A stretch of DNA of 64,000 nucleotides from Polyangiaceae bacterium (GCA_044376115.1 JBILLK010000011.1:32001-96000), one strand, 5' to 3'. Shown: positions 11,705-64,000, numbered from the stretch's first letter. Made by a program: numbers and translations. Notes: generated by a model not told the origin, from the sequence alone.

Positions 11705-13240
11705 CTACTGCTCAGGGAGCTTGCCGCGGGTGACCTTGTAGCGCCGAGTGCCTTCATCCCACGCCCAAGCCACATGGAAGTTCACCGGCTGAGTTCCCGT
11801 CTTGGTGATGGCGAGCCCTTTGCCTTTGATACCAAACTCACGCAGGTCAGGGCTCTGAAACTCACGAGCGGAATGCACAGTAAAAGGTTTGGCCGCGCTG
11901 TCCAGTATATCACTCGTGGGCAGGTCATCAGCGCCTAGGGTGCGGGCACGTAGCTCTCCCTGGTCATTGACGGCGAAGACCACCCAGGCAGGGCTCTGCG
12001 TGCCGTATTGTTGTGTAAGCCAGTCAGGGCGGTAGGCAATGACCTGTAGCTCGTTACCGCGCTCGACAATCGCCTTGATGTGGGTTGGCTGGGCGTACTC
12101 CACCGGAACGTCGCCGAATAGCGGGATGAACTCGACGATCTTGCCTTGCTTCTTGGTGACCAGGAAATCGCCATACGTCTTGACGAGTCCCACCTCGACG
12201 TCTCCTCGTTCAGCTTGTTTGAGATAGAGCGGTTCATCCCTGACGGTTAGCGCCTTGGAGCCTTGATGGGGTAAGCAGCGAACCCGGTCAGGCTGCCCAG
12301 GGTGATAAGAGAGCCCGGGCGGAAATGCGGTTCGCTTCGAGTATTTCCCTGGCACCAGCAGTCCTGCGAAGGTGCGCGCTCGCAGGTCCGCGAGTGGCTC
12401 AAACGCGATTGGCGTAGGGAAGGTGAGCTCTCGTAGCGGCGCCGAAGCCAGGCCGTCGCTGGTCGCTTCCGCGGAACTCAGCTTGGCAATACGAATGCGA
12501 AGCTTACTGAGCGGCGCTGCATTGAGGCGGGGTAACGCCGAGAGCGGGAGTTTTGCTTCGAGCCTATGGCCGCCTTGTGAGGTCAGTACCTTGTGCGCTA
12601 TCGGCTTGATTGGAAGCCAGGCGCCTTCGGGCCCGCGCTGGCTCGTCTCGCCGCTCGCCGCCACCCGCAGTCGGCTGAGGAACTCGGCCTTGTGGCTAAC
12701 CTGCAGCCGCTCGTAGTCCGCCGCCTTGGCTCGACAATCCGCGGCTTCCTTCGGCGTCTTCTTGCGCCCCTTGAAGCTGCTCCCTTCTGGTCCAGACTCC
12801 AATACGTTTTCGCAGTCAAAGGCCCATGGTTCACCGCCACGGGAGAACCACTCACCGACAGGCGCCAAGGCTGGCGGCTCTACCGAGAGCTCGATCTCGA
12901 AGCCGGTTTGGGCGCTACCTCCGAGCTCAGCTGCAAGCAATATCCCAGTATCGGTCAGGGCCAAGCCGATTCGTGACAACGCCTCGCGCGGGTTGTTCGC
13001 TAGCTCCTCGGTCGCCCGGAGATCGCCCCACTCAGTGAGTTCGCCGTCGGCTTCAAAGTTTTGCGGCGGACTCTTCAGCACCACGCCGATGCCGTCGATC
13101 CGCTGTTCGGGGGGCTGTGCTCCGGCGCTCGTAGACGCCGAAGCCTGCGGCGGTTCGATCGGTATCGAACGGTCGGCTGGTATCGAACGGTCGGCTGGTA
13201 TGTTGCAGGCGAAGGTGAATGCTAATGCGAAGTATCTCAT
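11705..13240 (-). CDS. Hypothetical lipoprotein
   Basis: 511-aa ORF with lipobox-like TFAC. Start overlaps the cytochrome stop (ATGA). Confidence 0.7.
   Translation of the reverse strand: MRYFALAFTFACNIPADRSIPADRSIPIEPPQASASTSAGAQPPEQRIDGIGVVLKSPPQNFEADGELTEWGDLRATEELANNPREALSRIGLALTDTGILLAAELGGSAQTGFEIELSVEPPALAPVGEWFSRGGEPWAFDCENVLESGPEGSSFKGRKKTPKEAADCRAKAADYERLQVSHKAEFLSRLRVAASGETSQRGPEGAWLPIKPIAHKVLTSQGGHRLEAKLPLSALPRLNAAPLSKLRIRIAKLSSAEATSDGLASAPLRELTFPTPIAFEPLADLRARTFAGLLVPGKYSKRTAFPPGLSYHPGQPDRVRCLPHQGSKALTVRDEPLYLKQAERGDVEVGLVKTYGDFLVTKKQGKIVEFIPLFGDVPVEYAQPTHIKAIVERGNELQVIAYRPDWLTQQYGTQSPAWVVFAVNDQGELRARTLGADDLPTSDILDSAAKPFTVHSAREFQSPDLREFGIKGKGLAITKTGTQPVNFHVAWAWDEGTRRYKVTRGKLPEQ
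13161..13201. repeat. 18-bp in-frame tandem repeat (about 2.3 copies) encoding IPADRS
   Basis: ggtatcgaacggtcggct x2 followed by ggtat. Confidence 0.85.
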
Positions 13241-17013: not shown

Positions 17014-17175
17014 AACCTGCAAGCGAAATGATTCGCAGCCGTGTCCAGTGCACAGCCGCCTGCCTTCGGGTTGAACGCGAAAGGCAAAGCTTGCACAACG
17101 GAGAGCGCTCCCAGCGCCGTCCATCAAGCATTGGGGCCGTGCGGGGAGTGGCACGTATCCTGTATTCAACGGCTC

Positions 17176-17955
17176 ATGGACTTCTACGACATCCCGCCCG
17201 GTGCGCTCCCGGCTGCGGATCCAGCCAAGTCGTTCTCCTCCCCTGGATCAGCGCTGATCGCAGCGTGGGAACAAGCCGGTGGTGATGTGAAGGCCCTGCG
17301 CAGGGTGTACAACCCGCTGCCCCACTGGCCGGGGCGTAAGTCCGGCCTCACCATTGGCATGGGCTACGATCTGAATCACCAGAATGACCAGCTGCTGAAG
17401 AAGGAGTGGGGCAAGGTGCTCTCCCCCGAGGACCTCGCCAAGCTCTCGGACTACACGCCCAGCATCAACGCCAAGGGCAAGCAGGTACCCAAGAAGAAGA
17501 ATCCAAGTAAAGCCGCGCTCGTCGCCACCAAAGACGTGGTCATCAAGTACGACGACGCCGTCAAGGTCTACGAGGACAAGATTTTACCTCGCTATCAAGC
17601 GATGGCCAACAAGGCATTCCCTGGCTTCGTTTCGCTCGATCCGTACACCCAGGGGGCGCTGCTCTCGATGGTCTACAACCGCGGCGACTCCTACACCCTG
17701 AAGAAGGGCACCAAGCAGGCGAAGGCGCTGCGCAAGAAGCACTTCATGGAGATACGCGAGGCCGTCATGAAGCATGACACCAAGGCGATCGAAGCGGTGT
17801 TGCGGGCAATGAAGTCCGAGCACAATGATCCGGAGACCAAGAAGGGCCTCTATCGGCGTCGCGACGCCGAGGCCGACTTGATCAAGGACCACCAAACGGA
17901 GATCGACAAGTTCTACAAGACCGCGCCGATGTGGGATCCGAACTTCTATATTTGA
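17176..17955 (+). CDS. Lysozyme-fold muramidase (pesticin C-terminal/GH24-like)
   Basis: WE...P.WPG..SGLTIGMGYDL, QGALLSMVYNRG, GLYRRRDAEADL. No signal peptide; Lys-rich. Confidence 0.85.
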   Translation: MDFYDIPPGALPAADPAKSFSSPGSALIAAWEQAGGDVKALRRVYNPLPHWPGRKSGLTIGMGYDLNHQNDQLLKKEWGKVLSPEDLAKLSDYTPSINAKGKQVPKKKNPSKAALVATKDVVIKYDDAVKVYEDKILPRYQAMANKAFPGFVSLDPYTQGALLSMVYNRGDSYTLKKGTKQAKALRKKHFMEIREAVMKHDTKAIEAVLRAMKSEHNDPETKKGLYRRRDAEADLIKDHQTEIDKFYKTAPMWDPNFYI

Positions 17956-18073
17956 GCGCTGACCAAGCGGTCCCGCCCAATGGCTCGCTCATCGGGTCAT
18001 GACCTCTCGGGTAATGGCTTCCTCGCACTATCGAGCCCAAAGAAGCGCCGTAGGACGCAACGGAGGGATGGGG

Positions 18074-18538
18074 ATGAAGCACTCGACACATAAGCAATGG
18101 CTCAAGCTCACGGCGATCGTGATTGGATCGTTCGGGCCCGTGTTCTTTCTTGGGACCATGGCCCAGACCTTGGAACCAGCGCGTCTGACGCTGGACCTCT
18201 TGAGCTGGCCTATCGACGGGGCGACGACCTACGCACACCGGGATACGCGCTTTCTTTCCGCGCTGACCGGCGGCTTCTTATTCGGTTGGGGCGTGACAGT
18301 GTGGTGCCTGTCGTCGTGGGTGTATGACCTCGCGCCCGAGGCCGTTCGGCGTACGGTGTTGGCCGGCCTTTGCTCTTGGTTCTGTTTGGACAGCGCAGGT
18401 TCGATTGCGTCGGGCAACGTCTCCAATTCGCTGTTCAACGTACTGGTGCTCGCTCTTGCAGCAGGGCCGCTGTGGTTCCCCGCAGGCGACGAAGACCCTG
18501 CAGGCAAGGGCGAGGCGGCTGCGAGTCACCGACGCTAG
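18074..18538 (+). CDS. Small multi-TM membrane protein
   Basis: Four hydrophobic segments; ATG follows GGAGG. Confidence 0.75.
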   Translation: MKHSTHKQWLKLTAIVIGSFGPVFFLGTMAQTLEPARLTLDLLSWPIDGATTYAHRDTRFLSALTGGFLFGWGVTVWCLSSWVYDLAPEAVRRTVLAGLCSWFCLDSAGSIASGNVSNSLFNVLVLALAAGPLWFPAGDEDPAGKGEAAASHRR

Positions 18539-19041
18539 TCGCCGCGCGTCGCTTGCTCGAGGGCTGTCGTGTACGGTCGAGCGCGCCGCTCGGCAAAACC
18601 ATCTACGAGCAAGCCTACGCCCGAGAAGAAGACCAGGGCGATGCCGAGGCCCTGGGTGAAGTCGCCGCGGGTCGCGAAGCGCAGCCCCAGCCCGACAACC
18701 CCAAAGGCCGCCCACACAATGAGATAGGTGGGCCAGGCGCGGTTCACTTTCTCCATTCGCGCGAGCTCGGCGCGCTGAGCTGCTTCAGGCTCGCTTTCGA
18801 GCGCGGCCTGCAAGGTGGCCGCCTGTGAGGGTGTACGGAACCCGACCGCTCCACCAACGACGGTCATGACCAAGCCCACGACGAGGAATGGAATCGCGAC
18901 GCCGCGAGCAAACCCGCCAGCGTTGTCGCTGAGGAGCCACCCACCGAACACCAGGCTCAACAGCCCAAGCGGTAGAATGAAAACCAAGGCTTCAATCTTC
19001 TCGCCTTGGAAGTAGGCCGTCATGATCTCGAGAAACTTCAT
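18535..19041 (-). CDS. Four-TM membrane protein
   Basis: YFQGEK.EA N-terminus, E..RM..V, D.FAERRA..Y; ATG follows GGAG. Confidence 0.8.
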   Translation of the reverse strand: MKFLEIMTAYFQGEKIEALVFILPLGLLSLVFGGWLLSDNAGGFARGVAIPFLVVGLVMTVVGGAVGFRTPSQAATLQAALESEPEAAQRAELARMEKVNRAWPTYLIVWAAFGVVGLGLRFATRGDFTQGLGIALVFFSGVGLLVDGFAERRARPYTTALEQATRGD

Positions 19042-19149
19042 GCTTACTCCGCTATCGTCGATTGTTAGGTCCAGTCGAAATGTAGCGCGCATTTCTTCGC
19101 CTGGTTCTGCCCTCTCCTCGGCCTCAGAACAAGTTGGAGGAGGTGGCTC

Positions 19150-19428
19150 GTGGGTTCATCGAATGGCACGTGCGGAGCTCGAGTGTGCATTGGAATGGCG
19201 CTCGTGGCGGTGCTCCTATCCGGCTGCTCGACCAGCAGGCTTTCGCAGCAGCCGATCAACAACCAGGAGGTCTTGCGGACCTTGCTGAGCTCGGGTGGCG
19301 ACCCGGCTCGCTGTAGGCCGATGTCAGCCGCTGAGTCTTATGCGTTCGAGGGTCAGCGTTACACCAACCTGCTCGGCAGTCGGGCCATGCCCACGCAGTG
19401 TAGCCATCCTCCCTTCATTGGGAGATAG
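19150..19428 (+). CDS. Possible small lipoprotein (start uncertain)
   Basis: LVAVLLSGC lipobox in an otherwise empty interval. Confidence 0.4.
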   Translation: MGSSNGTCGARVCIGMALVAVLLSGCSTSRLSQQPINNQEVLRTLLSSGGDPARCRPMSAAESYAFEGQRYTNLLGSRAMPTQCSHPPFIGR

Positions 19429-19470
19429 GCTGTCTCGCAGTGGCTTTCGCGGCTCGTGGCTTTAGCGGCT

Positions 19471-19498
19471 CGAGGCTGTTGCAACTCGAACAGCCTCG
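19471..19498. other. 10-bp perfect inverted repeat (hairpin) abutting the his promoter
   Basis: CGAGGCTGTT (19471-19480) / AACAGCCTCG (19489-19498), 8-nt loop. Confidence 0.75.
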
Positions 19499-19528
19499 TT
19501 GACGCATGCATGCTCACTCGGTTACCGT
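19499..19528 (+). promoter_or_regulatory. Candidate sigma70-type promoter of the his operon
   Basis: TTGACG (19499-19504), 18-bp spacer, TACCGT (19523-19528). The predicted +1 falls at about 19535. Confidence 0.6.
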
Positions 19529-19534
19529 CGTGCC

Positions 19535-19618
19535 GTGCTCGCTTGTGTCCCTCGCATCGCTCGCTCCTGTCGTGGGGAGCATCATGGTCACCATCACGGT
19601 GACCGTGGCGTGCGCTGA
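19535..19618 (+). CDS. hisL: Putative his operon leader peptide, 27 aa MLACVPRIARSCRGEHHGHHHGDRGVR
   Basis: GTG...TGA ORF with CAT CAT GGT CAC CAT CAC, ending 158 bp upstream of the hisG ATG. Too short for the ORF track. Confidence 0.8.
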   Translation: MLACVPRIARSCRGEHHGHHHGDRGVR

Positions 19619-19776
19619 TCCAGGTAGGAGTCGTCGAGTCAGCACGTCACGGTAGGAAGAGCCAAGGCTCTTTCGAGATTCGACGATGTCTGCGCACTAA
19701 CCTCGAGGTCCAAGCCTCGGTCTTCACTGTGCAGTTCCGCGGATCATCGACGTGCTTTCAGCACGAAAAGAGCAAC

Positions 19777-20628
19777 ATGCCCACGATCGCATTGCCCAAC
19801 AAAGGTCGACTGAGTGAAGAAGTGCGCGCGCTCTTGCGCGAGGCTGGTTTGAGTGTCCGGTTGCATGATGAGCGCGCGCTCGTCGCCTCGCTCGGTGAGG
19901 ACTTTTCGGCCATCTTCGTGCGTGCGCAGGACGTGCCGGAGTTCGTTGCCAACGGTGCTGCAGACATGGGCATCACCGGGCGTGATTGTGTGGCCGAGTC
20001 GGAGGTCGCGCTCGAGGAACGGCTGGACCTTGGAATGGGCCAGTGCCGGCTGGCGCTGGCGGCACGAAGCGCAAGTCGCGTCGAGGAGCTGCCGGACGGA
20101 CTGCGCGTGGCGACCTCCTTTCCGCGCTTGGCCGCGAACTACTTCGAGCGGCTCGGCAAGCGCGTAGAGATCGTCCGCGTGAGCGGCGCAGCCGAGGTAA
20201 CGCCGCACCTCGGCGTCGCCGACGCGATCGTCGATCTGGTTTCGACTGGGTCGACGTTGCGCGTGAACGGCCTTGTCGAGATCTGCACCTTGCTCGAGTC
20301 GTCTGCGGTGCTGGTGTCGAGGTCGCGCGCAGCGCTCACTACCGAACTCGATCTTGCGATCGAGGAGCTCTCGATGGTGCTGAGCAGCGTGCTCCGTGCG
20401 CGCGGCAAACGCTACTTGATGGCCAACGCCCCGCGGGCTGCGCTGGCCGCCGTGCGCGAGCTGCTCCCGGGCCTCAATGGTCCGACCATCGTGGACCCGC
20501 AGCAGGGCGACTACGTGGCCGTCCACGCCGTGGTCGAAGCCAGCGCTGTTTACCGAACCACCGTGCGCCTCAAGGCCGTCGGTTGTGAAGGCATCCTGGT
20601 TACGCGCATCGAAAGGATGGTTCCATGA
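19777..20628 (+). CDS. hisG: ATP phosphoribosyltransferase, long form
   Basis: IALPNKGRL, D.GITG.D...E, D.IVDLVSTG.TLR.NGL, C-terminal regulatory domain (PGLNGPT). Confidence 0.97.
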   Translation: MPTIALPNKGRLSEEVRALLREAGLSVRLHDERALVASLGEDFSAIFVRAQDVPEFVANGAADMGITGRDCVAESEVALEERLDLGMGQCRLALAARSASRVEELPDGLRVATSFPRLAANYFERLGKRVEIVRVSGAAEVTPHLGVADAIVDLVSTGSTLRVNGLVEICTLLESSAVLVSRSRAALTTELDLAIEELSMVLSSVLRARGKRYLMANAPRAALAAVRELLPGLNGPTIVDPQQGDYVAVHAVVEASAVYRTTVRLKAVGCEGILVTRIERMVP

Positions 20629-53500: not shown

Positions 53501-54268
53501 CTACTGCTCTATCACGATCTCGCGTATCAACGTCGCATAGGCCTCTTTCATCGGTAGCTCCATATCGACGAAGAACTCTTTGCGCTCGCTCGTCACGAGT
53601 TCCCCCGTCTTGGGGTTTTGCCCCTCGATCGCAACGTTGCGTAGCCGCACCGCGATGCCACGCTTTTGCCAGTTCGGTATGTCATTGAAGTTCCGTCCGT
53701 GACGAAACAGGAGCTCGTTGCGCTCGGAGACCGATACGCCCTGGAGCGCGAGCGTCGCTTCGTGGTCGCTCCGGCCTTGCTCGCGGAGGAGCCAATAGCA
53801 GTGACCGTTGAGCGCGTTGCGATGCGCGTCCTCGTGTCGCCAGCGAAAGTAGTCCACCACGTCCTCGCTACGCGGGAATTGGCTGATACGCGCGTCAAAT
53901 GCGCCAAGCATACCGAGCTCGAGCGAGAACTTGGCGCTGGCCTCTCCGGCCAATACCGACAGGTACTTACGCAGCTTGCGGCCGAACAAGCTCTCGTTCT
54001 GCCGAAATAGCAACGAGAGCTCGTCGCTCTGCGTGTACCCATAGAGCACGGAGAAGCCGCAGTCCTTCGCCAGGTATTGCAGCGTCGCCACCATACAGTC
54101 CCGGAAGCGGGCATCGTATGGCGCTTCAAACGCGTTGCTGCCGCGGGTCAGGCGCGAAAAGGAGCGCCCATCGATCCTCGCCACCATATGCATCCCGGGC
54201 AATACGCAATGGTCATGCGCGGTCTCGTAGACGCGCATTCGCCGGTCAAGATGTTCAAAGCTGCTCAC
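53501..54268 (-). CDS. Thg1-like protein (TLP), tRNA(His) guanylyltransferase-family 3'-5' polymerase
   Basis: RM..YE, ARIDGRSF..LT, YTQSDE.S, FGR..RK, FDAR, DYF.WR..DA.RN, N.N..P.W.KRG. Confidence 0.95.
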   Translation of the reverse strand: MSSFEHLDRRMRVYETAHDHCVLPGMHMVARIDGRSFSRLTRGSNAFEAPYDARFRDCMVATLQYLAKDCGFSVLYGYTQSDELSLLFRQNESLFGRKLRKYLSVLAGEASAKFSLELGMLGAFDARISQFPRSEDVVDYFRWRHEDAHRNALNGHCYWLLREQGRSDHEATLALQGVSVSERNELLFRHGRNFNDIPNWQKRGIAVRLRNVAIEGQNPKTGELVTSERKEFFVDMELPMKEAYATLIREIVIEQ

Positions 54269-54389
54269 GTGGCTCTAGGTTAACAAGTTCCACTGACGCT
54301 TGCTGGCTTGGCGCACCCAAGCCCAGGCCAGCGGGCCGCGTGCTATCTACGACATCCGCCTTGAGCTGAAGTTGTGATACCTCCGGACC

Positions 54390-55007
54390 ATGGGACGAGA
54401 TGTCGAACTCGAGTGCTTGTGCGGTGCTGTCCACGGTTTGGCTCGTGATGTGTCTTCAAAGACAGCCAATCGCGTGATTTGCCTGTGTGGGGATTGCCAA
54501 ACCTTCGCGCACTATCTAGGGCGCGCCGACTTGCTCGATCGTGACGGTGGTTCGGACGTCATCCAGCTCGCGCCCAGCTCAATCACGTTCGACCGCGGGA
54601 CCGAGAAGATCGCTTGCGTTCGACTCGGTCCGAAGGGGCCTTATCGCTGGTACGCGAGCTGCTGCAAAACGCCGCTGGGCAACACGGTCAAACCGTCGCT
54701 GCCATTCGTAGGCATCCTGCCCGAGCTCTTCCGTGAGGCCCGCGACCCCGAGCGGCGAGACGAACTGTTTGGGCCACCGCGGGCCCGTATCAACGGTAAG
54801 AGCGCTATCGGGACTCCGCCGCCCGGGTCGACCGACCGCAACCTAGGCTTCTTGATGCACACGGTGTTTACGATCCTCGGTTGGAAGCTCCGCGGACGTG
54901 CCTTTCCCCATCCCTATTTCGATCGCGCGAGCGAGCCGCTCTATCCAGTGAAGATCCTCACGCGAGAAGAACGCGAGCAGGCTCGGTCAAAGCGCGGTAC
55001 TACGTAG
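54390..55007 (+). CDS. DUF6151/GFA-like Zn-binding protein
   Basis: C.CG.V.G, C.C.DCQ.FA, RWYASCC.TPLGNT. Confidence 0.85.
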   Translation: MGRDVELECLCGAVHGLARDVSSKTANRVICLCGDCQTFAHYLGRADLLDRDGGSDVIQLAPSSITFDRGTEKIACVRLGPKGPYRWYASCCKTPLGNTVKPSLPFVGILPELFREARDPERRDELFGPPRARINGKSAIGTPPPGSTDRNLGFLMHTVFTILGWKLRGRAFPHPYFDRASEPLYPVKILTREEREQARSKRGTT

Positions 55008-55112
55008 TCTACTCGCTGCGTCGTCTCAAGCGCGCAGCCATCGCAGGCAACCTAGCCGTTTGGGTTCACGTTTGCGAGCGTGCCCCCGCGCCGCCAGGAA
55101 CTACATAAACGG

Positions 55113-55988
55113 TTAGCGCTGGCAGATAGGACAATAGCAGCTCGACCGAGTTGCGATGACGATGCGCTTGATGCGCGCTCCGCACTCCTTGCAGTCTTCG
55201 CCCTCGCGGCCATACACACGACGCTCGTCCTGGTAGCCGCCATCCTTCCCATCGGGGCGAAGGTAGTCGCTGATGCTGGAGCCGCCCGTCTCGATGCTGC
55301 GTGTCAGCACTTGGCGAACTCCGATCGCGATGGCGTCCCATTCTGCTCGCGTAACCTTGTGCGCTGCTCGCGCTGGGCGCACTCGCGCGATGGAGAGCGC
55401 CTCATCTGCGTAGATATTGCCGACCCCGGCCAAGACCCCTTGGTCCAAGAGCAGGGCTTTGACCGGTGTTTTCCGTTTGGAGCCGGCCTGACGCAGGGTC
55501 TGCCCATCGATCGAAAGCGCGTCGGGACCTAGCTTCTCAAGCCGAGGATCGGTTTCATCCACCCCGAGCAGGCGCACCTTTCCGAACTTGCGTACGTCCC
55601 GAAAGAACACCGACGGGCCTCGGTCCTCGAAATGAAAGCACAGGTGGGTATGCACATCAGGCTCGAACACGCTTTGTGCTTCGGGTGTAAGCGTGGCCCG
55701 CGCGGTCGCTGAGAGCAGTCTGGGACTCAGGGCGTTGCTCGAGAACAACTGGCCCGTCATCCCCAGGTGCAACAGCAGGCGTTGCTGGCTATCGAGCGTT
55801 CCCAAGAGGTACTTCCCAACCCTCGCCAGGCTGTGAATCGTCCGGCCGAGCAGGGCCTGCCGCAGCGTGGTCGGTGGAGTGAGGAAGAAGTAGCTTGGCT
55901 TGCTGACCACGACCTCACGCAGCGGGCGTCCGCAAAGCAGCGGCTCAATCACTCTGCGCGTCACTTCGACCTCGGGCAGCTCCGGCAT
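55113..55988 (-). CDS. mutM: Formamidopyrimidine-DNA glycosylase
   Basis: N-terminal MPELPEVE, HLGMTG, D.RKFG, LLDQ...AG.GNIYADE, C-terminal Zn finger CKECG...CPICQ. Confidence 0.97.
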   Translation of the reverse strand: MPELPEVEVTRRVIEPLLCGRPLREVVVSKPSYFFLTPPTTLRQALLGRTIHSLARVGKYLLGTLDSQQRLLLHLGMTGQLFSSNALSPRLLSATARATLTPEAQSVFEPDVHTHLCFHFEDRGPSVFFRDVRKFGKVRLLGVDETDPRLEKLGPDALSIDGQTLRQAGSKRKTPVKALLLDQGVLAGVGNIYADEALSIARVRPARAAHKVTRAEWDAIAIGVRQVLTRSIETGGSSISDYLRPDGKDGGYQDERRVYGREGEDCKECGARIKRIVIATRSSCYCPICQR

Positions 55989-56135
55989 CCGATCAAGCTG
56001 CCTCTGCTTGGCCGCGATGGCCACTGTTTCGGTAGCTTCGGACGCGAGATCGATGGGGTCAGCCTTTTCGGCGCTTGAGTAGTCGCTCGCGTTGTTTGTC
56101 TGTCAGGCTATCGCTGTGCAACGTCGTCAGTCGGG

Positions 56136-58280
56136 TCAGCGACGAAACCACCAGGTCGGCGCATAGAGCCCACTCGCATTGTACAGTGTAAGTCTCGAGA
56201 GCGTGTTGTCTGGGCTCCGCTGCAGTTCAACGCTCGATTGTGTGAACGTCAGCGTAACCTTCCTCACCGAGCTGTTTTCAAGCACGTTAACCAGCTCTCG
56301 CCATCGGGCAGGTTGGGCCTCGCTCAGGGAGCCGTTTATAGGCCCGCTGGGGAGGCACTCGAGCTTTAGCTGCAAGAGCTTTGGCGCGCGCACGAGAAAG
56401 CGGTGCAGGTCCTCCAACTGGGCTGGTAACGTTAGATGCGCCTCTTGAAGCTCGCTGGCTTCAATCGCGCTAAGTGGCATACGCAAACGCTCTAGCTTTG
56501 TGAACTTTATCCCGCCTAGATGTTCCGCCCCTAGTCGATAGTCCGTTGCAGCTTCGAGAACGCACAGCCGCGGTAGAAGCCGCAAGAAGTCCTGAGAAAA
56601 GCTTGTTTCATACGGCGTATGAAGTTTGAGGGACGTCAGCTTGGAGAGACCATCGAGCGATGGAAACGGTTGTGGGCACGAGCGCATGACCCAGAGCTCC
56701 AGCCGAGTGATGGAGCTTAGCGCGTGCAGCGCCCCAGACGAGAACTCGTCGATCATGAGCACCGCCTCCTCCAAAACATCGAGCGCCATCAGCGTTGGCA
56801 AGCGGGGGACTACCAACGACAGGCTCTTCAGCTGCCTTGGGAGCGACAAGGCTGGGATAGGCTTTGTCACGTGGAGCTTCAGCACGCGCAGCTCCGTGAG
56901 CGCCCCCCAATCAATCGTGGGTAGTTCGCCCGAGACGCGTAGCTCCAAGCTGCGCAGCCTCGCGGGCAGAGCCAATGGGAAGGCTCCTCCGTCCAGCTCG
57001 AGTCGAAGGGTCTCGAGCTTGCGCAAGGGTGAGAAGCAGTCCGGCGGCAAACGCTGAGCCTGTAGCTCCAGCCGCGTGAGATCGGGAAGAGCCGCCCATT
57101 GGGCCGCTGTGGGGCCAACCGCGGCGTGCAGCTCCAGCTCTGTCCATGGTCGAGGAGAAGTCGCTAGCGCTGCGAGGCACTTCTGCGGAAGTCCCCGAAG
57201 CCTTCGCACCGACCCGGCCGAGGGTTGATTCAAGAACGCAACGAGATCGTTGGGAGGCGGCTTGTGGCAATCCACGACTGTATGCAGCGTTGCGCAGGCA
57301 GCCTCGTTCAGGAGCGGCTTGATGTTCTTGAACAACGCGATCTGTGCTGGGAAGCCGCGATCGAACTGGCAAGTCCCGGCGTTCGAGAGAGGTTGCGCCC
57401 ACGCAGCTAGTCGATTGGGCAGGCAGAGTACACCCAGGCGGTTCCGCTCTTCGGTATCCTCTTCGACGTCCTCCCCGGCGGGATTGAGCCCACCTGCTGC
57501 CTGCGCAAGCTGTAGCGTAATGAGCTCGCCGCGTTCGTCCCCTTGCGCGAGCAAGAGGGCCGCCAGAGCAAAGCGAGCCGCATCCGATTGGGGGTTTGCG
57601 TAGACCGCGGCGAAGGCCGCTTCTCGGGCGCCTGGTTGAGTCTGCGGCGCCTTGGGGTGAGGCAGCTCGGCCAGGTTCAACTGGCGCTCCAAGCGCTCCA
57701 CTCGGGCCAATTGCTCGGCGTCGAGGTGAGCCGCTACTGTGCTATAGAACTGCTGTGCGATAGCTCGGAGCTCATTGGCGATGTAGCCGCCCGTGCTCGA
57801 GTTAACGATACTAAGGTAGCGGTCCGCGAGCGCGCTTATCCGCTTTGCCTGATCCCGGGCTCTCGAGTCTCGCAGCGCCTCCAGAATCGAGTCGATCAGC
57901 GGGCGCGAGGAAAGCCCGGCGTACGGCGGGTCCTCCAGCAGCTCGACGAGGCTGGCAGCCAATCGCGGATCCTCACGCCCCACGAGGGTCTCGAGCTTAC
58001 GTGTCACTTCCGCCTGCGTTCCCGCGCGAAGTGCGGCGGCTAGCCTCGGAAAATCGAGCGGATCATTCAGCGCCGCGACAGCCCACCAGGCCTCGAGGTC
58101 CTGCTTGCGCCTGCCCATGCGAAGCTGCTCCCGTAGCGGCTCTGCCGCCGTGAGCTGTTGCGCTACCGTTGCGTACAGCCGGGCTACACGCTCATGCCGA
58201 CTTATCCTCCAATCCTCGGCTAGCAACGCGAGCAGGGCTCGGGACATAGGTAAGGGCTGGGTATCGTCACTCGAAGTCAC
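56136..58280 (-). CDS. TIGR02996-like domain + leucine-rich-repeat protein (C-terminus possibly frameshifted)
   Basis: FAAVYANPQSDAARFALAALL.AQGD.RGELI.LQ resembles TIGR02996; many L..L..L.L repeats follow. Confidence 0.85.
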   Translation of the reverse strand: MTSSDDTQPLPMSRALLALLAEDWRISRHERVARLYATVAQQLTAAEPLREQLRMGRRKQDLEAWWAVAALNDPLDFPRLAAALRAGTQAEVTRKLETLVGREDPRLAASLVELLEDPPYAGLSSRPLIDSILEALRDSRARDQAKRISALADRYLSIVNSSTGGYIANELRAIAQQFYSTVAAHLDAEQLARVERLERQLNLAELPHPKAPQTQPGAREAAFAAVYANPQSDAARFALAALLLAQGDERGELITLQLAQAAGGLNPAGEDVEEDTEERNRLGVLCLPNRLAAWAQPLSNAGTCQFDRGFPAQIALFKNIKPLLNEAACATLHTVVDCHKPPPNDLVAFLNQPSAGSVRRLRGLPQKCLAALATSPRPWTELELHAAVGPTAAQWAALPDLTRLELQAQRLPPDCFSPLRKLETLRLELDGGAFPLALPARLRSLELRVSGELPTIDWGALTELRVLKLHVTKPIPALSLPRQLKSLSLVVPRLPTLMALDVLEEAVLMIDEFSSGALHALSSITRLELWVMRSCPQPFPSLDGLSKLTSLKLHTPYETSFSQDFLRLLPRLCVLEAATDYRLGAEHLGGIKFTKLERLRMPLSAIEASELQEAHLTLPAQLEDLHRFLVRAPKLLQLKLECLPSGPINGSLSEAQPARWRELVNVLENSSVRKVTLTFTQSSVELQRSPDNTLSRLTLYNASGLYAPTWWFRR
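57109..57152. repeat. 44-bp exact direct repeat, copy A
   Basis: gtggggccaaccgcggcgtgcagctccagctctgtccatggtcg, identical to 62239-62282. Confidence 0.95.
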
Positions 58281-58295
58281 CGCGGACTCCCTGCT

Positions 58296-58907
58296 TTACG
58301 GTGTGCTGCTCGCGCTGGGCACGGCGCTCGCGCTGGGAGCGGCGCTGGGCGTTGCGCTCGCGCTAGGTCCTGCGGCGGGCTCAACCTTGGTCAAGCTGCC
58401 GTCAGCGTTGGGTGGCCAAAGGTAGAGAGTCGCTTCGCCGGTGGAACGGTCTACCAGCCGAGCGCGATTGCAGCGCTCATGGTCTGCAAGCCGTACGAAC
58501 ATCTTGGTGTTGACGCGAAAGGTCGGTCGCTTGCGGCCCTTCTCATCGCGTCCACGTGGGCCATCCCCGTTCAACGGAACGTCGAAGCGGTGCCGATCCA
58601 GCAGCTGGTCGTCATCCAAGAGCTCGACCGCAAAACGACCCATCACACGTGGCGTCGCCGTGGCCTGCTTCAAGGTGACCTCCGTCACTTCGCGCAACGC
58701 TGGAACGCTGTCCTTCACGATGATGGTAAACACCCACTGTTTGGTCGTCGCGACCGGCGTCGGATCCGGCGCGAACTCTGGCTTGCTGGTCGAGCTCGAC
58801 GCTGAGGCGGCTGCTGTCGAGTACGCGGCTGGCGGGGCCACCAACATGATGAGCGGAAGTGCTCCCACCGACAGACCCAGCGCTATTGCAGCCCTGAAGC
58901 TTTGCAT
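58296..58907 (-). CDS. Secreted hypothetical protein
   Basis: Signal-like N-terminus MQSFRAAIALGL; TPRVMGRFAVEL...LLDR.RFD.PL core; low-complexity SASA tail. Confidence 0.75.
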   Translation of the reverse strand: MQSFRAAIALGLSVGALPLIMLVAPPAAYSTAAASASSSTSKPEFAPDPTPVATTKQWVFTIIVKDSVPALREVTEVTLKQATATPRVMGRFAVELLDDDQLLDRHRFDVPLNGDGPRGRDEKGRKRPTFRVNTKMFVRLADHERCNRARLVDRSTGEATLYLWPPNADGSLTKVEPAAGPSASATPSAAPSASAVPSASSTP

Positions 58908-59025
58908 GACGGCCCGTCTTCCCACGCTTTGGTCGCCCCGTCGAGTCTGGAGGCTCGGTCGCCTCGGGGAAGGTGGGGCGCCGATTGGCGATGCGCTCGG
59001 AGCGCCCTGCGGGCAGAATGCCGGC

Positions 59026-60030
59026 GTGACGCCTGACGTTCTCGAGCAAACCTTGCTTCGCGTAGTAGACGCTTCGCTGCGGCTGAGTGTCATGATTTGG
59101 GGCCCCCCAGGCGTAGGCAAATCGAGCGTGGTGCGCGAGGTCGCGGAGCAACGCAAGTTGCCGTTCGTTGACCTGCGCATAAGCCAACTTGCTCCAACGG
59201 ACTTGCGAGGATTGCCCGTCCCTGATGGCAGCGTCGCGCGTTGGCTCCCTCCTGACTTCCTCCCCCGGAGCGGCAAAGGGGTGCTGTTTCTCGATGAGAT
59301 CAACCTCGCTCCTCCCGCCGTCCAGGCGATTGCGCAGCAGCTGGTGCTCGACCGTCGAGTCGGCTCCTACTGTCTGCCGGAGGACTGGTTCGTCTGGGCT
59401 GCCGGCAATCGCCGCGAAGACCGCGCCGCGGTATTCGATATGCCGGCTCCATTGGCAAACCGTTTTCTGCACTTCAGCGTGGAGCCAAACCTAGAGAGCT
59501 TCCTTAGGTATGCAGCTCGGCGTGAGCTGCCAGAGTTGCTGCTTGGTTTCTTGGCGTTTCGGCCAGCGCTGCTCCATAAGTTGGATCCAAGTTCTCCTGC
59601 TTGGCCCTCGCCGAGAAGTTGGGAGATGGCAGGAAGGCTATTGCGCTCAGACTTGCCCCTGGGCGCTGCCATTGGAGACCCTGCGGCGGACGAGGTAGCT
59701 GCCTATTCGCGCGTCGTTCACAGCCTTCCGGATGTGGTCACGATCTTGAATGGAGCCGGGAGCGGGCTCGCCTTCCCGCAAGAGCCGTCTCAGCGGTATG
59801 CCATGACGTTTGCCCTGGCCGGTCGCCCCGAGACAGTCGCGCAGGCCGTCAATGCATTTGTCTGGCTATGCGAGCGCTCCGAGGCTGAATGGGGACGCCT
59901 CTTTGCTGGTCAAGTGCTGGAGCGAATGCGCCTTAAAAAACTCGAGGCGAAGTTCATCCAAGCGGCGGTGAAGCAACCTGCGTTGGTACGCTTCCTGGGA
60001 GAGTACCGTGAGCTCGTCCGAGCAGACTGA
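59026..60030 (+). CDS. MoxR-like AAA+ ATPase
   Basis: Walker A WGPPGVGKS, DLRG.P, Walker B LFLDE, AAGNR..D, PLANRF.H, PSPRSWE. Confidence 0.93.
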   Translation: MTPDVLEQTLLRVVDASLRLSVMIWGPPGVGKSSVVREVAEQRKLPFVDLRISQLAPTDLRGLPVPDGSVARWLPPDFLPRSGKGVLFLDEINLAPPAVQAIAQQLVLDRRVGSYCLPEDWFVWAAGNRREDRAAVFDMPAPLANRFLHFSVEPNLESFLRYAARRELPELLLGFLAFRPALLHKLDPSSPAWPSPRSWEMAGRLLRSDLPLGAAIGDPAADEVAAYSRVVHSLPDVVTILNGAGSGLAFPQEPSQRYAMTFALAGRPETVAQAVNAFVWLCERSEAEWGRLFAGQVLERMRLKKLEAKFIQAAVKQPALVRFLGEYRELVRAD

Positions 60031-61120
60031 GGCCGCTATGCGCAAGGCGCGTGGCGCACTGCTCGAGCTCGCCGTGCACTCGCCCTTCTTCGGTACGTTG
60101 GCTCTTTTTGCGGGGTTGGTGGCCGCGCCCGAGCGGACACAGACCGCCGCAACCGACGGAAGAACCATCTTCTATTGCCCGGAGTACGTGAACCAGCTCT
60201 CTCGGAAGCAGCTGCGTGGGCTGCTGCTGCATGAAGTTCTTCACGCGGCGCTCCTTCACCCTAGCCGACGTGGTCTACGTGAGCCGCTGCGGTGGAACCT
60301 CGCTGCGGACATCGTCACCAACGGAATCGTACGAGCGCTCAATTGGGCTGAACTCCCCCAAGGCGCCATCATCGAAGCCGCGCTGGAGACCTTTAGCGTT
60401 GAGGAGGTCTACGAGCTCGTCGCGGTTACGCCGCAAACCAAGGCCCTCCTCAATCCGGACCTATTGGAGTCCGAGGGCCCACAAGTGAATGCGTCACGGG
60501 CCGAAACTGAAGCCTATTGGCGTCAGGCACGCGCGCAGGCGGAGGTGCTCAGCGCGCACGGCTCAAAGCCAGTAGGTCTCGTGCGTGAGCTGGGGAAGCT
60601 CGCAGATGCAAAGGTTGATTGGCGCACCGAGCTTTGGCGATTTGCTGCAAAGACCCCAGACGACTTTGCTGACTTTGACCGCCGCTTCATTCACCGGGGC
60701 TTGTACCTTGAGTCGCTGGCCGCCGAGACGCTGGAGCTGCGCTTGGCGCTCGATACCAGCGGCTCGATATCCATTCCGCTCCTTCACAGCTTTGTTAGTG
60801 AGGTGCGAGCAATTCTTGGCCTCTACCCGCGCGTTCGTGGAGAACTCTACTTTGCCGACGCTGCGCTCTACGGCCCGTATGATCTCGAGCAGCCGATCCC
60901 AACTGCGTTGGGTCGCGGCGGTACTTCCTTTGTGCCCTTCTTCGAGGCGATTGAGCGCGATAGCTCATTAGGCGCCAGTCGGGTAGCCATCTATCTAACG
61001 GACGGCTTTGGCGAGTTCCCGCGCTTCGTACCCACGCTCCCGGTGCTTTGGGCTGTCGCTCCGGGAGGCGCAAGGGATGAAACCTTTCCCTTCGGTCGCG
61101 TGATTCGAATGGTCGACTAG
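60008..61120 (+). CDS. DUF2201-type zincin-like metallopeptidase + vWA-like domain protein
   Basis: TAATDG, HEVLH (HExxH), WN.A.D...N, ALDTSGSI MIDAS, GRGGT.F.P.F, YLTDG.G. Confidence 0.92.
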   Translation: MSSSEQTEAAMRKARGALLELAVHSPFFGTLALFAGLVAAPERTQTAATDGRTIFYCPEYVNQLSRKQLRGLLLHEVLHAALLHPSRRGLREPLRWNLAADIVTNGIVRALNWAELPQGAIIEAALETFSVEEVYELVAVTPQTKALLNPDLLESEGPQVNASRAETEAYWRQARAQAEVLSAHGSKPVGLVRELGKLADAKVDWRTELWRFAAKTPDDFADFDRRFIHRGLYLESLAAETLELRLALDTSGSISIPLLHSFVSEVRAILGLYPRVRGELYFADAALYGPYDLEQPIPTALGRGGTSFVPFFEAIERDSSLGASRVAIYLTDGFGEFPRFVPTLPVLWAVAPGGARDETFPFGRVIRMVD

Positions 61121-61166
61121 TCCTACCGGAGGTCGGACCATCGACAAGAGGGGGCCGAACTCTCCC

Positions 61167-62606
61167 CTAGGCTGGTCTCTTGGCAAGCCCGTCGAGCACG
61201 CGCGGGTTGGTATCCTTCGCCAGCTCAGCGAGCACTGCCTGCGGCGTCGCTCGGTTCTTGGCTACCGCGCGGCGAATGGTGGGACTCTTGTCTCCCGCTA
61301 GCTTGGTCAGCAAAGACGGCGGCGCGTCCTTACGCGTGGCGGCCGCAAGTCGACTCAACCCGTCGCGTTCGGCAAGCAGCGCAGGCTCCGCGTGCGCCAG
61401 CAACTCTGCGCTCGCAATCGCGACCGCGGCCCGGCGTACACCTCGGCGAGGATGGCTCAATGCGGAGCTTACAGACGAGGTTGAGCAGGCAGGGTTTTGC
61501 AGGGCCGCGATGGCGACTGCTGGTACCGCGTCCAGCACCAAACGCGCGAGCTCCTCGGGCGCGGTGGTGGCACGCTTGGCGATCTGTTCACGAACGCGAT
61601 AGTCCGAATCTGCTGCAAGCAAGCCGCACTCTTCGCTCGTGAGATCGCTCAGAGAGGCAAGCGCCATGCGTGCCGTGAGTTCTCGCCGTACGAGTGAGCT
61701 GCGGATCGCTTGTGGTAGCTGCGCCGTACGAGCCGACACCCGGATCGCCGCGCGGACCACCGCATCTCTCGCCTCTCCAGCCGTGGGTTCCAAGTCCAGC
61801 AAGGGAGGGGTTGCTGCTTTGGGCCAAGCTGGATGCGTCAACAGCACCTCTACGGCTTGTGAACATGACTCCACATCAACGAATAGGCCGCGTTCGCCGG
61901 CGCTACACAGATAGCGCATGAGGATCGCTTGAAGTTGCGGTTCGCTCAGCTGAGGCTGCTTCGCTAATCCGGCCAGAACCTGCAGGTTCTCCTGGGGATT
62001 TCCTGGCGTGAGCGCCCCTCGCAGCAGCTCAGCGAGCTTCTCTTTCGAAGTATGCGCGTAGTGGGCGTGAAAGAAGGTTCCCAGCTCGGCGAAGGGCTCT
62101 GGCCTCAGAGGTTCTGCTGGTGAAAGCGCCTCGGCCAATAGCAAAAGTGCGGGACCGTTAGCCTCCCGTTCAGCGCGGCCCTCGTGGACCGCCCGTGCAA
62201 TGCGAAAGGCGGCTCGCTCCACCCCCGTTCGACGAATCGTGGGGCCAACCGCGGCGTGCAGCTCCAGCTCTGTCCATGGTCGGTCCTTGGTCCAAGCGTA
62301 GAGCTCAGGAGGTGCCCCGTGTACCAAGAAGGCAATCACCGAATGGATAGGAAACTTGGCAAACGCGCTCGCGCCGCCGAGTGAGGCCAGCCCAACCGCA
62401 GGGTGGGCCAAAACCTCTTTGGGGACCGCGGTGGCTATGTTTAATAAGACCCTTAATGGTGTATTGGTGTGGGCGGCAATTTTCGCCAAGAGCTCGCGAT
62501 GCTGTGGGTAGTCCTTGGCGAGCGCTGTCAGCCGTTTCTCATTGGTCTGAGCGTTACCGGCGTCCGAGATCGCCTTCAGCAAAACCTTGTCGGTTGCGTC
62601 CGTCAT
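61167..62606 (-). CDS. HEAT/LRV-type repeat protein
   Basis: IA.H.NTP, LA.D....VR..(I/V)A....T....L..L repeats at both ends. Confidence 0.85.
   Translation of the reverse strand: MTDATDKVLLKAISDAGNAQTNEKRLTALAKDYPQHRELLAKIAAHTNTPLRVLLNIATAVPKEVLAHPAVGLASLGGASAFAKFPIHSVIAFLVHGAPPELYAWTKDRPWTELELHAAVGPTIRRTGVERAAFRIARAVHEGRAEREANGPALLLLAEALSPAEPLRPEPFAELGTFFHAHYAHTSKEKLAELLRGALTPGNPQENLQVLAGLAKQPQLSEPQLQAILMRYLCSAGERGLFVDVESCSQAVEVLLTHPAWPKAATPPLLDLEPTAGEARDAVVRAAIRVSARTAQLPQAIRSSLVRRELTARMALASLSDLTSEECGLLAADSDYRVREQIAKRATTAPEELARLVLDAVPAVAIAALQNPACSTSSVSSALSHPRRGVRRAAVAIASAELLAHAEPALLAERDGLSRLAAATRKDAPPSLLTKLAGDKSPTIRRAVAKNRATPQAVLAELAKDTNPRVLDGLAKRPA
62239..62282. repeat. 44-bp exact direct repeat, copy B
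   Basis: Identical to 57109-57152; same strand and reading frame (RPWTELELHAAVGPT). Confidence 0.95.
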
Positions 62607-64000
62607 GGTGATTGCTTCTTTCTGGAGGCGCTCTTCTTCGCAGGAGCCTTCTTCGCCAAGGCTTCGCGAGCGAGGGCTCTAATCTGGAAGTTCTCGTCCT
62701 CGCCCAGTTGCGAAAGTGCAGCGAACGTCGCTCGGCGGCAAGCTGCCACGGCCAATCTCACCTCCGCGTCGGGGTCAGTACAGAGCAACTCCAAGAGCTC
62801 GGGCGGTGTGCTTGCGGCGCGTACGATCTGCAGACGAACCTTGAGGTCTGCGTCTTCTGCGAGCGCCGCTAGCACGGAGCCTGGAAGGTTGCGTTGCCGT
62901 ACCAGCTCACGGCGCGTAGCGGCGATGGGGTCAAGCAGCACCTCCTCCAACTCGAGCGGTACTTCGTCCGACTGCTGACCTGCATCTACAGGCGAAGTCG
63001 CGCGAAGTTTTCCGAGGCTTGCTGCGGCCGCCGTCCGCACCTGTGGCGTGGGGTCAACCGATAGCCGGCCGAGGATCTCTGCACCTGCAGCGAGGTTGCC
63101 CGCCACAGCGCCGCGTACATAACCGTTCGGGTCTCGCGATAGCGTTTCCAGCGTATCCACCGGTGTTGCCGGGTTGGCGCCAACAAACTGCCTCACGCTT
63201 GGCGCCGAGTCCGCGGCAAAACGAACGAGCTTGCTCGGATCCTGCGTGTGCCTGGTGACAGTCTCGCGCAGTTCCAAGCGCAGCGACGCATCGAGCTTAC
63301 TCAGCTCGGCGTCTGTCGAATGGCTTGCGCCGGCGAGCGCTAACAGCCGTACGAGCTCGACCGGATCTTGCAGCAAGCGTTCGCGCAGGAAGTCGGGCAG
63401 ATCCCCGCGGCGCACGAGCCTCTGGCGCACCACGTCAGCGCCGTCTCGACTGAGAGCCTCCATCAAGGCTTCGCTGAGCTGTACGTGGCCAGCAACCGAA
63501 CAACGAACGTCGACCCGTTCTGAACTCGCCAATCGAGTTAGCACCTGTGGAGGCGTCTTCGGATTCCGCGCGAGATCGAGCGCTACCTCCTCGCGCGCAT
63601 TCGGGCTGAAGGTCGTTTGCCAGAGCGCGCCCAGCTCATCACTCGAGAGTCGACCATTCTTGGCAAGTGCCACGCGCACTTTCTCCGACGGATCTGCGAG
63701 CATGAGGGCTATGTCGCTTGCCGAGGCGGCGGCCCGCGCGGCCGCCGCGCGCACCTCGGAGTGGGCGTCCCTGATACCAAGGTCTGTCAGCCGACCATCC
63801 CGTTGCAGTAGCTTCAACTTGGTCTCGATCCGACAATTGGGAAAAATCTCTCGCGCGACTGCCGTGGTAAGCGTCGGCGGGCTACCACCAAGCGGCTGCG
63901 ACGCATTCACCAACACCTTCGCGAGGGCGACCGGATCCTTGGCCGAACTCAGACCACCAAGCAGCGTCGCGCGCGCGGACTGCGAGAGCCTAGGTCCTAT
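62603..64000 (-). CDS. HEAT/LRV-type repeat protein, 5'-partial
   Basis: Frame open to the window edge; many L..D....VR...A.N...P repeats; stop overlaps the next start (ATGA). Confidence 0.85.
   Translation of the reverse strand: MGPRLSQSARATLLGGLSSAKDPVALAKVLVNASQPLGGSPPTLTTAVAREIFPNCRIETKLKLLQRDGRLTDLGIRDAHSEVRAAAARAAASASDIALMLADPSEKVRVALAKNGRLSSDELGALWQTTFSPNAREEVALDLARNPKTPPQVLTRLASSERVDVRCSVAGHVQLSEALMEALSRDGADVVRQRLVRRGDLPDFLRERLLQDPVELVRLLALAGASHSTDAELSKLDASLRLELRETVTRHTQDPSKLVRFAADSAPSVRQFVGANPATPVDTLETLSRDPNGYVRGAVAGNLAAGAEILGRLSVDPTPQVRTAAAASLGKLRATSPVDAGQQSDEVPLELEEVLLDPIAATRRELVRQRNLPGSVLAALAEDADLKVRLQIVRAASTPPELLELLCTDPDAEVRLAVAACRRATFAALSQLGEDENFQIRALAREALAKKAPAKKSASRKKQSP

Follow-up and report, generated by a model that had tools for sequence, protein, structure and literature searches.

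A 44-bp tract shared in frame by two unrelated repeat-protein genes of a lake myxobacterium, read as a probable templated insertion

The closest described relatives of the event discussed here are templated insertions, which in eukaryotes are primed by minimal base pairing; according to one review, insertions made by polymerase theta are generally shorter than 25 bp, occasionally exceed 20 bases and use flanking sequence as their template (PMC12426944). Template switching over a short range has also been described (PMC7954356). For bacteria, a group II intron-like reverse transcriptase acts in microhomology-mediated end joining according to a preprint (10.1101/2022.03.14.484287), and alternative end joining (A-EJ) in Escherichia coli is mentioned, with reference to Chayot et al. 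2010, in a passage of PMC6054270. The locus to be compared with these systems lies in a stretch of 64,000 nucleotides from a lake myxobacterium of the family Polyangiaceae (GCA_044376115.1, JBILLK010000011.1:32001-96000; hereafter the window), in which two unrelated genes, one for a leucine-rich repeat (LRR) protein (P0001) and one for an LRV/HEAT repeat protein (P0002), share an exact tract of 44 bp.

The copy in the LRV/HEAT gene (copy B) is read here as a recent in-frame insertion which was most likely copied from the LRR gene (copy A), at a distance of 5.1 kb, when replication or break repair switched template on a single occasion. The pair of repeats is thus regarded as a mutation scar and not as a demonstrated switch. 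The original prediction, made from the window alone, had put a domain-swapping or excision switch for putative receptors first and had kept as its fallback a scar left by an integration or gene-conversion event; it is this fallback, taken as a single act of copying without reciprocal exchange, that fits all the evidence, with an intact donor, relatives without the patch and an un-inserted allele on record.

The two copies of the tract

Copy A (57109-57152) and copy B (62239-62282) agree at 44 of 44 nucleotides in direct orientation, with an offset of 5,130 nt, which equals 3 x 1,710. The identity ends abruptly on both sides, with T at 57108 against C at 62238 and A at 57153 against G at 62283, and the 20-nt flanks are without relation to each other. 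Each copy is part of a long open reading frame (ORF) of the minus strand; the two are read in one shared frame and encode the peptide RPWTELELHAAVGPT, which forms residues 377-391 of the 714-aa ORF at 56136-58280 (P0001) and residues 109-123 of the 479-aa ORF at 61167-62606 (P0002). An exact repeat with sharp ends, a spacing divisible by three and a single peptide read in frame from aa 377 and aa 109 are what the original prediction had described, and on each of these points it was accurate. When the two proteins are compared by BLASTP, the patch is the sole sequence they share.

Within the window the tract is the sole exact direct repeat of at least 24 nt; the only other exact repeat of at least 20 nt is 20-23 nt long and starts in 13160-13183. 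The source genome is a 94-contig metagenome-assembled draft of 10,138,267 bp (estimated 95.9% complete, with 5.56% contamination), in which the window lies on contig C7. A search of this draft for further copies, which had been suggested along with the prediction, returned exactly 2 matches to the 44-mer with up to 3 mismatches allowed and 0 matches to a reversed control pattern under the same conditions. At the level of the peptide, tblastn against the genome gave 2 perfect matches, with the next best only 60% identical (E 0.61). A match of 44 nt is expected by chance 1.2e-16 times per window and 6e-12 times per genome. No hairpin was found at either copy beyond what shuffled sequences give (DNA folding z-scores 0.05 to 1.24), and a repeat of the repetitive extragenic palindrome or miniature inverted-repeat transposable element type was rejected on the grounds that there are two copies only and that they fold no better than shuffles.

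Acceptor, donor and un-inserted allele

The acceptor gene (P0002, 479 aa; 61167-62606, minus strand) encodes an alpha-solenoid of the LRV/HEAT type in its C-terminal half, while its N-terminal half holds the insertion, copy B at 62239-62282 (minus strand, codons 109-123). P0002 is an LRV/HEAT repeat protein, reaching 22.6 bits against a gathering score of 21.6 for Pfam LRV (PF01816; E 1.3e-4), albeit by a narrow margin. In its structural model the C-terminal half consists of confident helical repeats, and residues 54-186, which include the insertion site, have a predicted local distance difference test score (pLDDT) below 50. Each protein was searched against 40 relatives and its own genome, 41 genomes altogether, and matches to P0002 occurred in 6 of them, with full-length orthologues in G004 (74% identical) and G005 (48%).

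These orthologues, as well as more distant proteins, lack the patch. The G004 protein reads AWARD-PS-IRRTG where the window reads AWTKD-RPWTELELHAAVGPT-IRRTG, the G005 protein is likewise without the extra length, and a tblastx comparison with G004 leaves a gap of 39 nt at copy B. In a large protein collection the P0002 query found five proteins, and 4 of the 4 aligned relatives are without the 13 extra residues; at the insertion site P0004 reads PS and P0005 reads RS, and P0004-P0006 all do without the 13 residues. Because all four aligned relatives lack it, the patch is, as judged from these alignments, an insertion in the LRV/HEAT gene. The suspicion that the peptide is foreign to the HEAT protein was therefore justified by G004, G005 and P0003-P0006 alike. 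The further idea that it might replace native sequence holds for 3-5 nt only, as the net change is +39 nt.

The most informative of these relatives is P0003 (466 aa), which is 100% identical to P0002 over the aligned columns and has PS where P0002 has the 15-residue patch. The two proteins fall into one 90% cluster, in which P0002 is represented by 5 contigs (two sources) and P0003 by a single contig of 1,863 nt (two sources). The same two alleles can be recognised at the level of DNA. Parts of the window are held by 24 public lake or freshwater sequencing runs, all as contigs, of which eight (X1-X8) were examined; uncovered stretches in X2, X6 and X8 were not used for inference. Junctions of the inserted allele are present in 7 of the 8 runs, on the left side of copy B in X1 and X3-X7 and on its right side in X1-X7. 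The eighth run, X8, contains a contig of 200 nt (record 21, depth 3) which matches 62054-62239 without difference (186 nt) and whose remaining 14 letters bypass the insert. Its coding strand has GAC CCA TCG ATT (D-P-S-I), which is the P0003 allele, and G004 also has D-P-S-I. Both alleles together were seen in 0 of the 8 runs.

The un-inserted form must be the ancestral one, since the outgroups agree with it and no single deletion of the inserted form regenerates it. We read the insertion as recent and polymorphic in wild lake populations, in which both alleles survive. Protein-guided scans and scans with a 24-nt pattern for DNA of the un-inserted allele in metagenome contigs came back empty, a result which does not imply its absence, as records of near-identical genomes were possibly left out of these collections. 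Short protein fragments across the insertion site, sought for allele counts, were not found.

In the LRR gene, the patch has every appearance of being at home. The donor gene (P0001; 56136-58280, minus strand, 714-aa ORF) encodes a protein that is helical in its N-terminal half and an LRR solenoid in its C-terminal part and that also contains a weak TIGR02996-like stretch; copy A, the likely donor tract, is at 57109-57152 (minus strand, codons 377-391); the database version of the protein has 660 aa, with a start codon further downstream. Of the 41 genomes, 8 have matches to P0001; among them, G004 has an orthologue over the full length (63%), and the one in G010 is partial (41% over residues 11-443). 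The G004 orthologue carries RTWTELEVQGAVGPT at the position of the patch, all 8 aligned family members (8 of 8) share R377 and W379, and G010 together with five further members keeps R..W. As the orthologues keep the patch in this place, with R377 and W379 invariant, it is native to the LRR gene and, by this alignment evidence, ancestral in the gene family. The donor was left unchanged by the event, and the gene is collinear with its orthologues. At its 3' end (56025-56200, minus strand) there is an apparent frameshift: the frame stops after ...NASGLYAPTWWFRR, and another frame reads CADLVVSSLTRLTTLHSDSLTDKQRERLLKRRKG, a match to the tail with which the orthologues end at the C-terminus, so that either a mutation or an assembly error is at hand.

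The identity of P0001 as an LRR protein is a matter of fold. No Pfam or NCBIfam family matches it at E 0.01 or better, and Pfam LRR_8 reaches an E of 0.49 only, though two P0001 homologues do carry PF13855. In an AlphaFold2 model built from eight family members (mean pLDDT 82.5), the helical N-terminal half is followed by short strands, one for each 20-24 residues, from about 360 to 641; pLDDT in blocks of this solenoid is mostly above 85 up to residue 510 and 71-95 beyond. Every listed Foldseek match of the model in the PDB is an LRR protein, with E from 4e-7, and the listed matches include NLRC4, TIR1, Toll-like receptors, internalin and the LRR domain of Roco. By its predicted fold, then, the C-terminal half of P0001 is an LRR protein. 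Model residues 381-385, within the patch, form a beta-strand of the solenoid, and the block of residues 371-390 has a pLDDT of 92-93, in agreement with the earlier observation that the peptide fits the LRR register.

The two labels that the original prediction gave to this gene fared differently. The LRR label stands, by fold only, and the label of a TIGR02996 N-terminus does not, as the curated NCBIfam cut-off is not reached: at a relaxed threshold TIGR02996 scores 14.1 bits against a cut-off of 29.05 (E 0.03), over profile positions 4-45 of 45, and the matching residues 221-261 are not N-terminal. P0018, a distant match of P0001, is called a member of the TIGR02996 family by its source.

Origin of the inserted tract and rival readings

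With the ancestral allele at hand, both joints can be described. The ancestral acceptor reads ...AAG GAC C-CAT-C GAT T... on the coding strand and the derived allele ...AAG GAC C-(42 nt)-C GAT T..., and the 42 nt of the donor are bounded by C on both sides as well. This means that 42-44 new nucleotides stand in place of 3-5 ancestral ones (CAT or CCATC), a net gain of 39 nt or 13 codons, with a microhomology of 1 nt between donor and ancestral acceptor at each joint. The features of a templated insertion are thus found together: the tract is identical to an intact donor, the ancestral allele is known and agrees with the outgroups, and minimal microhomology goes along with a small loss at the target. 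It is because of the exact copy nearby, the intact donor, the small target loss and the one-base joints that a templated insertion is favoured.

The following course of events would account for the observations. A 3' end at a break or a stalled fork in the acceptor gene would have paired by minimal homology with the nearby donor, from which 42-44 nt would have been copied before the end returned, so that CAT (or CCATC) was replaced and 13 codons were added. With a net gain divisible by three, the gene would have stayed open and the allele could have spread. A predicted by-product is the 44-bp direct repeat itself, at which homologous recombination could rarely delete 5,130 bp and fuse the two genes in frame.

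The nearness of the donor is an argument of its own, since a donor drawn at random would be found within 5.1 kb with a probability of about 1e-3 (2 x 5,130 / 10,138,267), or only about once in a thousand, which favours copying in cis. This also bears on a different course, in which 42-44 nt of the cell's own DNA, released by a nuclease, were ligated into a break in the acceptor by Ku/LigD end joining, with no copying in cis. The enzymes for it are at hand, as the genome has Ku and three matches to the LigD polymerase domain, one of them next to Ku, and a joint homology of 0-1 nt is typical of end joining. In Sinorhizobium meliloti, moreover, bacterial non-homologous end joining (NHEJ) has taken up a DNA fragment where the genome was broken, but the captured DNA in that study was an introduced cassette and not a genomic piece of 44 nt (PMC6379672). 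A random fragment would come from within 5.1 kb in about 1 of 1,000 cases, and half the time only would it be in the same orientation, so that the proximity of the donor is left unexplained. Capture of a free fragment is accordingly considered unlikely, with a small but appreciable chance of being correct.

An error of assembly or polishing, by which copy B would be absent from the cells, might be suspected in a metagenome-assembled draft of 94 contigs with 5.56% estimated contamination, and a chimeric assembly had been allowed for in the original prediction. The B-side junctions, however, are found in separately built contigs of 7 runs, and the 479-aa protein occurs on 5 contigs, which stem from two sources. 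The insertion also keeps the frame, and the flanks are ordered as in the orthologous G004 genes. Each of the four types of junction is found again in contigs of several runs, which refutes the worry; the chance that copy B is an artefact is negligible.

The direct repeats around a few kilobases resemble attL and attR, and the genome contains four reverse transcriptases, features which could point to the ends of a mobile or integrated element, to a copy driven by a retroelement of the diversity-generating type (DGR) or to a small mobile repeat. Against an element it counts that both genes continue as orthologues across the boundaries of the repeat and that the bracketed genes are syntenic in the congener G004. 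In fact, the window from 54024 to 64000 is collinear with contig C234 of G004, the only breaks being the gap of 39 nt and one extra G004 gene, and no repeat above 25 nt at 84% was found at the G004 locus. An integrated element was ruled out by this synteny with a genome that lacks the repeat, and the integration event that the original prediction had entertained finds no support in a 10-kb locus which is collinear with that of a congener without the repeat. The composition is ordinary, with no sign of an island (GC content of the window 0.61-0.66; GC content at third codon positions of the locus genes 0.67-0.75). DGRs are characterised by adenine mutagenesis and by a reverse transcriptase near the template and the variable repeat; all 4 matches to RVT_1 in the genome lie elsewhere, with 0 on contig C7, which has no integrase either, and 0 of 8 adenines in the tract are changed, so a DGR was rejected. 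A small mobile repeat is opposed by the presence of two copies only and by the lack of a hairpin. We give this group of explanations next to no weight.

The reading that the original prediction had put first takes the two 44-bp copies as crossover sites at which cells alternate with a deletion or circle form, carrying in-frame HEAT-N/LRR-C and LRR-N/HEAT-C chimeras. It is true, as had been claimed, that a crossover would give in-frame chimeras, since the copies share one frame and both products would be read through. The length of 44 bp also exceeds the minimum for RecA-dependent recombination, which in E. coli is about 25-30 bp, and one contig with a deletion-type joint exists (X6, record 12). 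The repeat pair is new and not conserved, however, as copy B is missing from an otherwise identical allele and from all relatives. No recombinase had been visible in the window, and there is none on the contig: tyrosine recombinases (PF00589) have 4 matches in the genome and 0 on C7, and serine recombinases (PF00239) have 0 in the genome, which is estimated to be 95.9% complete. Two database searches, with P0002 and with P0001, gave no chimeric protein; chimeras of the expected lengths, about 446 and 747 aa, are neither among the 5 matches of P0002 (range of lengths searched 263-839) nor among the 9 matches of P0001 (392-1250). With the repeat pair not conserved, no recombinase on the contig and no chimeric protein, the switch is unsupported and must be called very improbable.

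The contig from X6 requires a closer look. It is 364 nt long, has a depth of 3.1, enters the repeat from copy A's left flank and leaves it into copy B's right flank. Adjacent contigs of the runs share 30 nt and are interrupted at the repeat, so that no contig phases across the 44 nt; the contigs break there because the word length of the assembler, which we take to be 31, is shorter than the repeat. In X6 the B-left contig covers 10 nt of the repeat before it ends, and a junction of the A-right type was not seen. With junction words missing and a word shorter than the repeat which this shallow contig crosses, record 12 can be explained as a chimera of the assembly graph; such a chimera is expected, and the contig was not counted as evidence. 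There is a slim chance that the joint reflects a real molecule from wild cells which delete the 5.1-kb AAA/VWA segment and fuse the HEAT-type N-terminus in frame to the LRR solenoid. If so, a templated micro-insertion would have opened a fresh route of domain shuffling between unrelated receptor-like genes, caught in a natural population. Occasional deletion of the 5.1-kb segment is in any case a reasonable prediction. As for depths around the repeat, the 44-nt repeat contig in X1 has a depth of 17 and its four flanks have 14.6-16.6, where a two-copy word should have about twice the depth of a flank, and in X5 the depth of the repeat contig, 18.3, is about what its flanks add up to; these depths are averages along long contigs.

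Several points weigh against a templated insertion from the LRR gene into the LRV/HEAT gene. The counts of alleles across the eight runs may not be independent, as these runs may share one campaign and X1 may be the source sample of the genome. The DNA of the un-inserted allele amounts to one contig of low depth and one database protein, maybe from the same sample. A single event does not allow its pathway to be assigned from sequence, and 42-44 nt from 5 kb away would be both longer and more distant than the typical insertions of polymerase theta. Full-text literature searches yielded no paper on patches copied in cis in this way in bacteria, which is no proof of their absence. The X6 contig, finally, does carry the predicted deletion joint at its depth of 3.1 and might stem from a real recombinant. 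A templated insertion is nonetheless the reading which we consider probable.

A self-comparison of the genome by megablast gave 81 exact non-tandem pairs of 36-90 nt, mostly overlaps of contig ends, dispersed intergenic repeats and arrays that resemble CRISPR arrays. Three other isolated exact direct repeats with unrelated flanks, each 1.4-6.6 kb apart on one contig, are maybe copied patches, their coding status being doubtful: one of 46 nt on C66 (29097-29142 and 27644-27689), one of 41 nt on C79 (104896-104936 and 98287-98327) and one of 36 nt on C70 (10490-10525 and 6514-6549). In addition, two families of exact 36-37-nt repeats with many copies and short spacing occur on C22 (about 17100-19900) and C16, and also on C4, C14 and C92; by their appearance they are either CRISPR array-like or dispersed.

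Bracketed genes and comparison with known systems

The genes between and beside the two copies are ordinary members of a syntenic locus. Next to the LRR gene lies a gene (58296-58907, minus strand) for a small protein whose N-terminus is hydrophobic (203 aa from MQSFRAAIALGL...) and which is 82% identical over 175 aa to its G004 counterpart and matches no Pfam or NCBIfam family. It is followed by a MoxR-like AAA+ ATPase gene of uncertain start (58906-60030, plus strand; AAA_5 E 6.6e-7, AAA E 1.7e-6), for which the homology to a 346-aa protein of G004 sets in at about 59010, with the nearest upstream ATG at 58906. The third gene (60008-61120, plus strand) encodes a protein with DUF2201_N, a putative metallopeptidase, and the VWA-like DUF2201 (Pfam E 1.1e-30 and 2e-14), and has an orthologue in G004. 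The names MoxR and vWA that had been given to these two genes are thus roughly right, the families matched being AAA_5/AAA and DUF2201_N with DUF2201. Upstream of the acceptor there is another LRV/HEAT repeat protein gene (62603-63916, minus strand; LRV E 5.2e-24, HEAT E 9.5e-16), which adjoins the orthologue of the acceptor in G004 and G005 too.

The AAA+ gene (MoxR-like, 58441-60030) and the DUF2201_N/DUF2201 gene form a conserved pair, which is flanked by LRV/HEAT and LRR proteins in the present genome (G000) and in G004; in G005 the DUF2201 gene has LRV/HEAT proteins alongside. In the window, the genes for the small protein and the AAA ATPase abut, with candidate start codons that overlap at 58905-58908. 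The extra gene of G004, an ORF of 601 aa on the minus strand, lies between these two (window 58829-59010 against L027 5305-7078).

The event adds one more case to a known class of mutation and is as such of modest interest. In eukaryotes, templated insertions are well documented as a signature of break repair. The value of the present case lies in the persistence of both alleles in wild lake populations, through which the sequence before the event, the donor and the two joints are legible at single-base resolution. It is a natural example of a short coding module, one LRR strand, that moved in frame into an unrelated gene, and an event of this type at once supplies the substrate for a later deletion or gene fusion. 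It also calls for caution, as a perfect in-frame repeat around a few genes resembles a switch and need not be one. A single event is anecdotal, and the value of the observation would grow if patches copied in cis prove common in the large genomes of myxobacteria.

When the locus is set beside the known systems, programmed switches and excisable elements share with it the identical direct repeats a few kilobases apart, in frame in two genes, but here no recombinase is nearby, the repeats are not conserved, the genes are ordinary and syntenic, and no recombinant form has been shown. Ectopic gene conversion is likewise a non-reciprocal transfer of a short tract that results in two identical copies, yet it needs flanking homology, whereas the genes in question share only the patch and the event added length. 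Ku/LigD NHEJ and the RecBCD-dependent A-EJ of E. coli need no long homology to mend breaks and can insert DNA at the joint, and Ku and LigD are present in this genome; the additions reported for bacterial end joining, in the portions of the literature consulted, are a few non-templated nucleotides or a whole cassette and not a copy of 44 nt from 5 kb away. The closest likeness is to templated insertions, as made by polymerase-theta end joining or by switches of the fork stalling and template switching or microhomology-mediated break-induced replication type (FoSTeS/MMBIR), with which the event shares an identical tract nearby, an intact donor, a loss of few bases, joints of 1 nt and its one-off nature. 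Unlike the eukaryotic cases, it took place in a bacterium without a known polymerase theta, comprises 42-44 nt and has a donor 5.1 kb off instead of in the immediate flank, and the alleles from before and after the event are here both still present in wild populations.

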